From a virus (taxonomy: Duplodnaviria > Heunggongvirae > Uroviricota > Caudoviricetes), in IMG/VR virus record IMGVR_UViG_2778261570_000021, positions 1-4,397 of that record: DNA of 4,397 nucleotides; one strand, 5' to 3'. Position 1 is the stretch's first letter; the number at the start of each line of letters is the position of its first letter. Below are positions 1 to 3,000 of this stretch, piece by piece. Position numbers: made by a program.

Positions 1-3000
1 CCGGAAAAATGATCACGCTGGATAATCCACCAATCCCGGGGAAACAATCGCTGGCAAAGAGGACGTCAATTCCTCTGGTAAGTCAGGTTGAGTTTTCGAC
101 ATCATCATGGCGACGGGCGGTTCTGTCTCTTGAAGAACACCATAAAGCCTGGTTGCTGTGGTGTTACAGTGGCAGCATTTGCTGGGAACATCAGATTGCG
201 ATAACTCAGTGGGCGTGGAATGAATTTAACGCGCAATCTGGTACCAGAAAAATTGCGGAGAAAACACGGGAACGCCTGAAAAAATTAATCTGGCTGGCGG
301 TGCAGGATGTGAAGAGCGAGCTGGCTGGGAGTGAGACTTATGAATATCAGGAACTGGCTGAATTGATGGGGGTTGCTAAATCCACATGGACAGAGACATA
401 CCGACCTCGCTGGGAGATTATGCGTGACTGTGTTACAGGCCTGGACAAAGATGCGCTTATATCGGCAATGCACTTACGTTCACAACAAAAGGTATCTAAT
501 ACCAGGTTAAATATTGCAAAACCGAACTGAAAAGTGTATTTTGCGCATAAATCTGATATTTTGCCGATTTTTTACGCGATGGCAAAGTAAGCAAATCCCG
601 CCGCCGAGCGGGTTTTTTGTTGGCTTAACAGGTTATAATGTATAGTGCGAAACTGCCTGTTCAGCAGAATCATTTTGTTTGTAGTGGAGTTCACAAGTCG
701 TCATTATCAGGCAAAGAGATTTATGGTATTAAAGTATCAGCCGTCTGTTCGTTCTGTTTTAATGTGTGATTTTCGGGGAATGGTTGTTCCGGAAATAGTC
801 AAGGTCAGGCCAGTGGTGGTCGTGTCCAGAAACAGGCACAACAATCAATTGGTAACAGTGGTACCAATAAGCACTACTGAACCGCTCCCTCGCAGAGATT
901 GCCATCATGAGTTATCAGAAAACCCCATACCTGGTAATGAGCATATTACTTGCTGGGTAAAATGTGACATGTTGATGACGGTTTCATTGAGCCGACTGGA
1001 TCGCATAAAAACCAGAACCTGGGAGGGACGAAATTATATTGTTCCTATGATTGCGGAAGATGAGTTTGAGAATATTAAACGGGCGGTATTGCACGGGATA
1101 GGGATGGCTTATCTGTATCGATAATCGTTTTCGATTATCGAATTCGATATGAATTTATATTGACACACATAGTGTGTTGGCTGATACTGTCGCTGTACCC
1201 TGATGGGACTTGTGAGACTTCCGAACAGGAAGCCAGGAGTAGCGATGAGGTGATGACAAGCCTGCTGCCCCTGTGTAAAAGGCACCTTAATGGTGCCTTT
1301 GTCGTTTTTATCAAAAGATCCCGCCACTGAGCGGGTTTTTTTGTGCCCTAAAAACGGCACAGGACGTTAAACGCGCTGGTGGTTGCGAATACGGGTCTTT
1401 CAGCTTGCTGGCTTTTTCGACAAGAGGTATTGGTATGTCACGTTAACCAGAAAAGGGAAAAGACATGCTAAAACAGCAGGATATGACTGAAACCGCCAGA
1501 GTGGTGTTTAATGAATTAAGCGTCACTGAACCGGCGACCGTCGGGGAAATTGCGCAGAATACTTACCTTTCACGTGAACGCTGCCAGTTAATACTGACCC
1601 AGCTTGTTATGGCGGGTCTGGCAGATTATCAGTTCGGTTGTTACAGACGCCTTCCGCAGTGAAGGCTTTTTTATTTGTGGTAATGGGCGGCTGGTGGGTG
1701 TTAGCGGCACCTGCCAGCCATCTGCTCATGCGTTGGGGTCACAAGCAAACCTCAGGCCCATCTGCTTTGCGCAAAAGCAGTATGAGCCTATCAGAGAAGT
1801 GCTTATTGATCTATGGCTAATACTGTAAAAATATCCAGTTGTGAGTTAATCAACGCTGATTGCCTGGAATTTATCCAGACCTTACCGGAAAACTCTGTCG
1901 ATCTGATAGTCACAGACCCGCCGTATTTTAAAGTGAAGCCCGAGGGCTGGGATAACCAGTGGAAGGGCGACGATGATTACCTGAAATGGCTGGATCAGTG
2001 TCTGGTGCAATTCTGGCGGGTACTGAAACCTGCCGGAAGTCTCTACCTGTTCTGTGGTCATCGCCTGGCATCTGATATCGAAATCATGATGCGTGAACGC
2101 TTTAATGTGCTGAACCACATTATCTGGGCGAAGCCGTCCGGACGCTGGAACGGATGCAACAAGGAAAGCCTGCGGGCGTATTTCCCGGCAACAGAACGCA
2201 TTCTGTTTGCAGAACATTATCAGGGGCCATACCAGCCCAAAAATGACGGCTATGCGGCAAAGGGGCGCGAGCTTAAACAGTGCGTCATGGCCCCGCTGAT
2301 TTCTTACTTTCGTGATGCGCGTGAATCACTGGGAATAACGTCAAAACAGATAGCGGAAGCCACCGGAAAGAAAAACATGGCTTCGCACTGGTTTGGTACC
2401 AGTCAGTGGCAATTACCGAACGAGGGTGATTACAACAAATTGCAGGCGTTGTTTGCGCGTGTTGCGGCAGAAAAACATCAGCGCGGGGAACTGGAAAAGC
2501 CACACCACCAGCTGGTCAGCACATACAGTGAACTGAACCGGCAATATGCCAGCCTGCTGGAAGAGTACAAATCTTTGCGGCGTTATTTTTCCGTATCGGC
2601 AGCCGTTCCTTATACGGATGTCTGGACGCATAAACCCGTGCAGTTTTATCCGGGCAAACATCCCTGTGAAAAACCGGCGGGTATGTTGCGGCAGATAATT
2701 GAGGCCAGCAGCCGTCCTGGTGATTTGGTTGCCGACTTTTTTATGGGGTCAGGCTCCACAGTAAAGGCTGCATTGTCGCTGGAGCGCCGTGCGATAGGTG
2801 TGGAGCTGGAGGCTGTACGGTTTAACCAGACAGTGAAAGAGATAAATGCGCTGGTGGTTAATCAGGCAGATAAGTGTTACCCGGAAAAATAACTAATTCC
2901 GATATGGTATACCTGATTATTGTTAGTTTGCTTATCTTTTAGTATCTTCCTGCTCAGCAGGATCCCCCTGCAACGACGATTGTATGATGAATACCTTTTA

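Follow-up and report, generated by a model that had tools for sequence, protein, structure and literature searches.

A 65-residue winged-helix gene, a structured RNA leader and an adenine methyltransferase gene as a possible regulated cassette of lambdoid prophage late regions

What might a 65-amino-acid protein encoded just upstream of a phage DNA methyltransferase be for, and why should the two genes stay together? The locus that raises this question lies in a stretch of 4,397 nucleotides (nt) from a tailed phage (Caudoviricetes; IMG/VR record IMGVR_UViG_2778261570_000021, positions 1 to 4,397), hereafter called the window, which corresponds to the beginning of a lambdoid prophage late region. 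An original prediction described the small gene as an independent moron with a PapI/FaeA-like product, forming a methylation-dependent regulatory pair with the methyltransferase or, alternatively, serving as antitoxin for an upstream toxin. Our results point instead to a three-part mobile cassette, which would consist of the winged-helix gene, a structured leader RNA of about 130 nt and the gene for an M.EcoGII-type, putatively non-specific adenine methyltransferase. The winged-helix protein may be a dedicated accessory regulator, repressor or activator, of this locked late-operon cassette, a reading to which we give a probability of roughly 0.4.

The small open reading frame (ORF) is a genuine gene under purifying selection. 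An in-frame stop codon (1444-1446) lies upstream, a Shine-Dalgarno sequence (AAGGG, 1453-1457) is placed 7 nt before the ATG, and the product matches PHROG 331, a phage family of unknown function, with an E value of 1.4e-37 (residues 1-64 on profile positions 35-98). Homologues numbered 334 in a set of 5.8 billion proteins, the identical 65-residue protein was found on at least 1000 contigs, and a 501-nt region containing the ORF is present in 2165 of 5426 complete Escherichia coli genomes. The median ratio of non-synonymous to synonymous substitution rates (dN/dS) was 0.12, with synonymous sites near saturation, and across 63 codons the third position was variable in 59, the first in 36 and the second in 29. 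Database forms of 94-106 residues represent upstream start miscalls or frame fusions with non-coding sequence, and have no conserved extension.

A pattern search across genomes recovered 26 loci. Most belong to Enterobacterales (Escherichia, Salmonella, Klebsiella, Kluyvera, Citrobacter, Buttiauxella, Mixta, Erwinia, Proteus, Providencia and Plesiomonas), and a few are filed under other names (a Bacillus metagenome-assembled genome and a Chryseobacterium assembly). At 24 of these a methylase of the same family follows 137-154 nt past the stop codon of the small gene; one of the remaining two is cut by a contig end, and the other (L021) is a degenerate remnant without a methylase. In viral contigs, the small gene was found upstream in about 101 of 107 assessable elements, and a homologue of only 42% identity (P0173) still precedes a methylase, itself 60% identical. 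No copy of the small gene was found in another context, and because its only methylase-less copies are deletion remnants (L097 and L021), the protein does not seem to exist independently of the methylase. The upstream neighbor, in contrast, is freely exchanged, being a MazF-like toxin gene in the window, a GIY-YIG nuclease gene in phiP27, Q directly in phages 1720a-02 and SfV, and other genes elsewhere; since the methylase alone is constant, the small gene is tied to it and not to the toxin. The suggestion that the protein neutralizes the MazF/PemK-like toxin was accordingly rejected on synteny, as the toxin is missing from the cassettes of phiP27, 1720a-02, SfV, mEp460 and most other loci, and in the window a gap of 341 nt with two terminators separates the two genes. 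The context throughout is that of a phage late region, in the order Q, terminator, small gene, methylase, tRNAs or cargo, and lysis genes; no fimbrial operon or Lrp context was found around the small gene.

Comparison of the protein with known folds retained one half of the proposed PapI/FaeA resemblance, a generic winged helix, and removed the other. AlphaFold2, using an alignment of 17 sequences, predicted a canonical minimal winged helix (predicted local distance difference test score, pLDDT, 93; predicted template modeling score, pTM, 0.81), with helices H1 (residues 9-16), H2 (26-33) and H3 (37-49), a strand at residue 24 and a hairpin wing (53-62). Kinship with PapI and FaeA was rejected on three grounds: the FaeA model of Pfam (PF04703) matched none of the 17 family members even at E <= 10; hhalign to PapI, whose sequence was verified against PDB entry 2HTJ, gave a probability of 57% with 18% identity over 44 columns of the generic helix-turn-helix (HTH) core; and 2HTJ was absent from the top 50 of 1899 Foldseek neighbors in the PDB. 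The similarity to PapI is that of any winged helix. Membership of the TrmB family, suggested by the label 'TrmB family transcriptional regulator' of the Prokaryotic Genome Annotation Pipeline (PGAP), was likewise rejected, given that TrmB (PF01978) scored 18 bits, below its gathering cut-off of 25.6 bits, and that the 65-residue protein has no second (effector) domain. DprA_WH matched 15 of the 17 family members, with similar sub-threshold scores for MarR_2, HTH_20 and Rrf2; HTH_3 (Xre-type) and NCBIfam gave no match, and PADLOC a single weak one (E = 0.0035). Searches of PDB sequences, with the single protein and with a profile, returned chance or generic winged-helix matches only, and Foldseek against BFVD viral structures returned generic winged helices without an informative neighbor. 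None of the 1899 PDB neighbors reached E <= 1e-3; the leading ones were the N-terminal dimerization winged helices of S-adenosylmethionine (SAM)-dependent methyltransferases, followed by OhrR/MarR and IclR, and SelB with its selenocysteine insertion sequence (SECIS) RNA was also among them. Within the family, the N-terminus and the helix-3 motif (RCQLILTQ) are conserved while the H1-H2 region and the wing diverge, and the invariant residues L44, T45, Q46 and G51 are located in or just past helix 3. T45 and Q46 would occupy positions at which the recognition helices of MarR-type proteins contact DNA.

Upstream of the small gene we identified a conserved motif (Table 1) that has an invariant CTTGCTG block and a fixed 10-nt spacing across 26 aligned loci, the ten intervening nucleotides being variable, and that lies about 25 nt before the good Shine-Dalgarno sequence. 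In the window it has the geometry of a -35 element (TTGCTG, 1405-1410), a 17-nt spacer and a -10 element (TATTGG, 1428-1433; consensus TAYNTG). Because the motif is kept with the gene when the RNA leader described below is lost (L152) and is gone when the gene is deleted (L076), it is a candidate for the small gene's weak sigma-70 promoter, its operator, or both. A promoter of its own would also serve a moron directed at the host, which would be expressed in the lysogen to regulate host genes while the methylase is merely fellow cargo at an insertion hotspot. In keeping with this, the small gene has terminators on both sides, the -35/-10 geometry, a normal 5' untranslated region and a Shine-Dalgarno sequence, and the region past pR' is already known to accommodate morons (Tree et al., PMC4104026). 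Co-location alone, however, would not hold gene order and a spacing of 137-154 nt from Escherichia to Plesiomonas while neighbors swap freely, and with no copy in another context we consider a host-directed moron quite unlikely.

The terminators themselves, on which the supposed independence of the small gene was founded, do exist, but hairpins of this kind are frequent along the late operon, which leaves the moron reading half right: the window has 17 terminator-like sites, against 4.5 +/- 2.3 in shuffled sequences. A hairpin and T-run precede the small gene in nearly all relatives, at the site of 1320-1342. The second terminator overlaps the final four codons and the stop codon of the small gene, and its stem is preserved by compensatory changes in Enterobacteriaceae. 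A hairpin with a T-tract always lies directly 5' of the leader, and in N15 and phiKO2 it is the annotated terminator of the late promoter; because it is present whatever gene is upstream, we assign the terminator at 1649-1672 to the methylase module and not to the small gene.

Between this terminator and the methylase lies what appears to be a conserved, apparently uncatalogued structured RNA that buries the methylase start site. The constant spacing between the small gene and the methylase prompted an alignment of the intergenic regions. The leader is 76-78% identical when the window is compared with other enteric genera, and third-codon positions in the two flanking genes are only 42-52% identical; for comparisons with Proteus, Providencia and Plesiomonas, the corresponding values are 61-70% and 29-41%. 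The minimum free energy (MFE) of the leader is -63.8 kcal/mol (z = -4.1), and none of 200 shuffles was equally stable. Four helices make up the model (Table 1), and no Shine-Dalgarno sequence precedes the AUG of the window methylase. In a MAFFT alignment of 32 sequences, 93.6% of the cells were paired and 11 pairs were altered on both sides, while slid registers gave 28-44% paired and none of 500 shuffles attained the observed value. A second alignment of 39 sequences, which includes distant phages and is biased towards the structure, having been fitted to the model, gave 93.9% paired, with 28 of 40 pairs altered on both sides compared to 7-12 in slid registers. As G-U pairs are numerous, the fold is specific to the + strand. 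Rfam 15 (4227 families) gave no match in 1660-1830 at E <= 1. Two other accounts of this interval were rejected. A small ORF or a DNA palindrome is inconsistent with indels of 1-2 nt, with loops that vary in length, and with abundant G-U pairs confined to the + strand. The conserved sequence TGTGRAAAT, 5' of the leader, was considered as an extended -10 promoter of the methylase and discarded, because the adjoining 5' strand of P1 co-varies with its partners and must therefore be transcribed.

A covariance model of the leader also located it upstream of methylase homologues with 51-61% amino acid identity, which were found by tblastn of phage records, a search with the methylase alignment having given only close relatives. 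Scores were 65 bits in Klebsiella phage 020009, 60 in phiKO2, 49 in N15, 48 in PhiR46_1, 45 in both VHML and VP58.5, 44 in an Enterobacter Ravinvirus, 36 in Aeromonas PhAER-1 and 27 in Vibrio ST2-1pr; the model did not detect the leader in Aeromonas phiO18P. A variant cassette (L150-L152, for example L152 3196-3267) has a 42%-identical winged-helix gene, a gap of only 73 nt and a methylase of 60% identity, whose start lies 10 codons further on behind a normal Shine-Dalgarno sequence (AAGGA); the leader is missing, and its sole trace is a short segment similar to the 3' end of P2 (ACAGTCAT). On one viral contig (L101), two complete leaders are located about 3 kb apart (282-432 and 3267-3419, - strand), which suggests either a tandemly duplicated cassette or a pair of neighboring methylase genes.

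The leader also has the potential for an alternative fold. Its segment X (1683-1688), which forms the 5' strand of P1, has two complementary segments, Y1 (1724-1729) and Y2 (1756-1761, within P4), and in the two lineages with an altered X, both Y1 and Y2 are altered to match: VHML has X GUGGGC, Y1 GCUCAC and Y2 GCCCAC, and PhAER-1 has X CGUGGC with GCCACG at both Y1 and Y2. The MFE structure of phiKO2 pairs X with Y2, and the others pair X with Y1. Since X:Y2 would cross P5, this pairing could free the start region. Covariation, sequestration of the start site and alternative pairing, the features of a riboswitch-like or protein-responsive leader, were thus all found, ligand or effector aside. 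That the 130-nt element represents a new class of switchable leader gating a self-toxic N6-methyladenine (m6A) methyltransferase, with the winged-helix protein, the methylase, or SAM or S-adenosylhomocysteine (SAH) as effector, is an attractive but doubtful proposition.

The methylase has the motif order of the beta class (DPPY at residues 35-38, FMGSG at 310-314), in agreement with the adenine-type enzyme that had been predicted directly downstream. It shares 84% amino acid identity with the enzyme of phage 1720a-02, which Murray et al. (PMC5778455) described as very similar to M.EcoGII, and by way of that enzyme it can be provisionally placed in the M.EcoGII family; M.EcoGII itself (EGT69837.1) was not among the members listed for the 90% clusters of the window's or mEp460's methylase. 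At 359 residues, the window enzyme is longer than most members of its 90% cluster and the mEp460 cluster (348-350), owing to a C-terminal extension (2845-2892). M.EcoGII modifies adenines irrespective of sequence context, needs no partner for full activity in vitro or in vivo, is unexpressed in the lysogen and slows growth when constitutive (PMC5778455), and its homologues in O111 Shiga toxin-producing E. coli are also silent (PMC6602927). By analogy with these homologues, the window methylase is probably non-specific and silent in the lysogen.

An enzyme of this kind undercuts a motif-specific, GATC-type epigenetic switch, precisely because its family is non-specific and lysogen-silent. A GATC does occur directly before the methylase AUG (1808-1811) and is kept in at least 90% of relatives, but its conservation is explained by its position within the 3' strand of the co-varying helix P5. 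Of the regulatory pair first envisaged, the association stands, in the form of synteny conserved over many genera, and the GATC-type switch does not. Despite the winged-helix fold and the 44 columns aligned with PapI, a PapI/FaeA-type co-regulator acting at methylation-sensitive GATC switches, like the antitoxin model, is largely refuted by the profile, structural and contextual evidence above, and we regard either as extremely improbable.

These observations can be combined into a working model. The cassette lies in the moron-tolerant zone directly past Q, pR' and tR' of lambdoid prophages, and the methylase would be made only when Q-modified RNA polymerase passes the terminators in lytic growth, when it could guard the DNA of the progeny against restriction. 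Leaky expression would be held back by two locks, the terminator and the leader that sequesters the start site. The role of the winged-helix protein would be that of a dedicated accessory regulator, functionally comparable to the controller protein of a restriction-modification system, with putative nucleic-acid contact through the invariant helix 3. Its likeliest target would be the conserved motif 5' of its own gene, as an autoregulated weak promoter or operator, and an additional or alternative target may be the methylase leader, as DNA or RNA. We favor a regulator because the protein depends on the methylase and not vice versa, because the residues that never vary are concentrated in helix 3, in contrast to the divergent H1-H2 and wing, and because the small gene lies outside the locked unit, as does gp51 of N15 and phiKO2. 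The fixed-geometry motif that accompanies the gene is also counted in its favor. In N15 and phiKO2, gp51 (75 residues, winged helix) lies outside the unit of late promoter, terminator, leader and methylase, a placement that fits a regulator made independently of the methylase.

Several observations weigh against a regulator that binds nucleic acid. The wing is not conserved, the protein is approximately neutral (6 basic and 7 acidic residues, by sequence count), and helix 3 is unusually hydrophobic (QLILTQLVMAGL), which would equally fit a protein-protein interface. The upstream motif was not called in a consensus promoter scan, its -10-like hexamer ends in an invariant G instead of the T preferred by sigma-70, and it has no dyad symmetry and is not palindromic. 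In six viral loci the methylase occurs without the small gene, with leader and methylase unchanged, and three loci retain the small gene and the methylase without the leader; each part can be lost singly, so no part strictly needs another. The match of gp51 to the window protein (hhalign probability 79%, 25% identity) is barely above that of PapI.

Some of these points would suit a protein partner, that is, a winged-helix protein that, instead of regulating genes, binds the methylase itself and inhibits it, activates it, or targets it to phage DNA, whether replicating or packaged. The strictness with which it accompanies the methylase, the neutral charge and hydrophobic conserved face of helix 3, and the frequent use of stand-alone or appended winged helices as protein-interaction modules, including the dimerization domains of SAM-dependent methyltransferases that lead the Foldseek list, are consistent with such a role, and an inhibitor would be sensible for an enzyme that is deleterious when constitutive (PMC5778455). 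Against this, a terminator and a 150-nt leader separate the genes without translational coupling, the analogous gene lies outside the late unit in N15 and phiKO2, M.EcoGII is fully active alone (PMC5778455), and six loci manage without the small gene; a partner therefore seems to us a serious but unlikely alternative to the regulator.

The same loci bear on the idea that the protein acts as effector of the leader RNA, shifting it between the sequestered and open folds and thereby controlling methylase translation. The high conservation of the leader, the choice of X between Y1 and Y2 with both co-varying in VHML and PhAER-1, the alternative pairing taken by the phiKO2 MFE structure, the position of the small gene directly upstream on the same late transcript, and the binding of RNA by some winged helices, such as the SelB-SECIS complex among the Foldseek neighbors, all speak for it. 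However, the leader is unchanged where the protein is missing, the protein persists where the leader is lost, and the protein is not basic, which makes an RNA effector rather improbable. Counter-defense is a further conceivable role, in which the protein would block host nucleases of the Mrr-like type IV restriction class, whose attack on m6A-rich DNA the methylase would otherwise provoke. The rationale of such a pairing, the small, non-basic protein and the use of an mcr/mrr-deleted host for M.EcoGII expression (PMC5778455) would be in line with it, yet we found no similarity to known anti-restriction proteins, the sole PADLOC match being the weak one noted above, and the argument is inferential throughout; we deem it very unlikely. 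A dedicated accessory regulator remains our preferred, if tentative, interpretation.

The surroundings of the cassette are summarized in Table 1. Positions 1320-4161 of the window are 93% identical to phage phiP27, and homology to phiP27 and Stx2 phages starts at the left terminator of the cassette (megablast matches from 1320 or 1331). Between methylase and holins, phiP27 has tRNA-Ile, tRNA-Arg and the stx2e A/B genes, whereas the window has tRNA-Arg(UCU) only; comparison of window 2893-3160 with L001 4552-6171 identifies the window as a stx-less relative of the phiP27 late region, and in E. coli TUM9812 this site is occupied by tRNA-Thr and tRNA-Gly. The interval from the tRNA to the holins (3160-3500) contains three + strand terminator-like hairpins (3327-3345, 3354-3375 and 3466-3481) and weak, sub-threshold Rfam matches only; it approximates the position of short prophage anti-sRNAs of the AgvB/AsxR class in passages of Tree et al. 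(PMC4104026), and the present locus is unmentioned in the passages on prophage small RNAs (sRNAs) of that paper and of the Pas sRNA preprint. The MazF/PemK-like toxin gene has no recognizable adjoining antitoxin ORF, and is flanked by the near-identical terminators 597-618 and 1320-1342, as though it had recombined in between terminator copies. A good promoter-like site 3' of the toxin gene (TTGACA-17-GATACT, 1160-1188), together with the terminator at 1278-1300, predicts an RNA of about 100 nt, without an Rfam match, that could be an sRNA or an RNA antitoxin.

Table 1. Positions of genes, terminators and RNA helices in the 4,397-nt window.
Feature	Position	Strand	Details
Antiterminator Q gene, 3' part	9-530	+	PF06323, E 1e-67, profile positions 54-217; phrog_304; 5' end outside the window
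tR'-like intrinsic terminator directly after Q	597-618	+	near-duplicate of 1320-1342 (CCCGCCGCCGAGCGGGTTTTTT vs CCCGCCACTGAGCGGGTTTTTTT)
MazF/PemK-like toxin gene	723-1124		
Terminator	1278-1300		
Intrinsic terminator, left edge of conserved cassette	1320-1342	+	hairpin 1320-1335, T7 run
Conserved upstream motif	1404-1439	+	CTTGCTG-N10-nnAGAGTTAYnTGTRTGYC; window form CTTGCTG...CAAGAGGTATTGGTATGTC
Winged-helix ORF, 65 residues	1465-1662	+	ATG 1465, TGA 1660-1662; PHROG 331
Hairpin and T-tract terminator	1649-1672	+	hairpin 1649-1666, T6 run
Structured RNA leader of methylase (apparent)	1683-1812	+	
Leader helix P1	1683-1688 with 1724-1729		
Leader helix P2	1689-1719		hairpin, 12-14 base pairs
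Leader helix P4	1754-1789		long interrupted hairpin
Leader helix P5	1736-1747 with 1800-1812		long-range helix; pairs positions -1 to -13 before methylase AUG 1813
Beta-class N6-adenine DNA methyltransferase gene	1813-2892	+	PF01555, E 4e-42; PADLOC MTase_II, E 5e-154
tRNA-Arg(UCU)	3079-3155		
Two holin genes, then start of endolysin gene			GH108 per annotation of a 98%-identical E. coli prophage

Enzymes of the M.EcoGII type are widely used tools in m6A footprinting, DiMeLo-type mapping and RNA methylation, and genes for them are present, in Stx phages among others, in about 40% of complete E. coli genomes. Tolerance of a methylase that acts on nearly any adenine has so far been credited to 'prophage silence', and the locus described here suggests that control is specific and conserved, through a terminator, a start-site-sequestering leader and a dedicated winged-helix protein. 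Records of the gene pair, with unknown function, go back a long time, and the most interesting part is the leader, which appears to be uncatalogued. If our reading is correct, the leader would represent a new family of cis-regulatory RNAs, a role would be assigned to a hypothetical phage protein that is very common and now labeled TrmB-family on a below-threshold match, and a testable model would be available for how phages time broad-spectrum anti-restriction methylation. Were the leader in fact a switch flipped by an effector, winged-helix protein, leader and methylase would constitute a dedicated three-part safety circuit for an anti-restriction enzyme, and the switchable leader would span temperate phages of Enterobacterales, Vibrio and Aeromonas.

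Several known systems invite comparison. The same gene pair occurs as L23/L24 in phiP27, orf47/orf48 in SfV, mEp460_052/053, and in the cdtI phage, and we verified the leader in phiP27, SfV and mEp460. M.EcoGII and M.EcoGI, orphan methyltransferases of E. coli O104:H4 prophages (PMC5778455), share the methylase family and the prophage position; the passages concerned with M.EcoGII (PMC5778455, PMC6602927 and PMC11551740) deal with the enzyme alone, and mention neither the winged-helix gene nor the leader. PapI and FaeA are also stand-alone winged helices of 65-80 residues, from which our protein differs in having no family-level match, no fimbrial operon, no Lrp/GATC architecture and a methylase that is not Dam-like in specificity. 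Riboswitch platforms and translational-control leaders resemble the methylase leader as conserved multi-helix 5' elements with a 3' strand that pairs ahead of the AUG and with mutually exclusive alternative pairings, while the latter has no Rfam 15 match and no terminator-antiterminator pair inside.

A more distant counterpart is the gp51-gp52 region of N15 and phiKO2, which has the same order of winged-helix gene, terminator, leader (49-60 bits), methylase (57-61% amino acid identity) and lysis genes, and differs in the late promoter and partition site between the winged-helix gene and the terminator. Helix-3-like motifs are seen in the upstream ORFs of ST2-1pr (VVEQLLVSG; L240 458-706) and phiKO2 (gp51, IVEQMICMG; L235 1003-1230), compared to LILTQLVMAG in the window. 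For the ST2-1pr ORF, hhalign detected no match with the family and BLASTP gave only a weak hit, to phiKO2 gp51 (E = 0.003), the small ORFs upstream in VP58.5/VHML and ST2-1pr had no Pfam match, and no recognizable winged-helix ORF lies upstream of the methylase in VHML and PhAER-1. The similarity of the ST2-1pr and phiKO2 ORFs to the window protein, being weak or not significant, may reflect very distant homology or convergence.

A functional parallel can be drawn with the controller (C) proteins of restriction-modification systems, such as C.PvuII and C.AhdI. In both cases, a small protein with a DNA-binding fold is encoded upstream of, and co-oriented with, a modification gene that is harmful if mistimed, and a conserved sequence lies 5' of the small protein's own gene. 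Dimers with an Xre-type HTH, C proteins recognize palindromic C-boxes and chiefly set the timing of the endonuclease, whereas the window combines a winged helix with a non-palindromic motif, no endonuclease, and a terminator and RNA leader between the genes. Although its protein is not a C protein, having a different fold and no C-box, and the resemblance is confined to the layout of the genes, the arrangement would work like a modification gene guarded by a controller protein.

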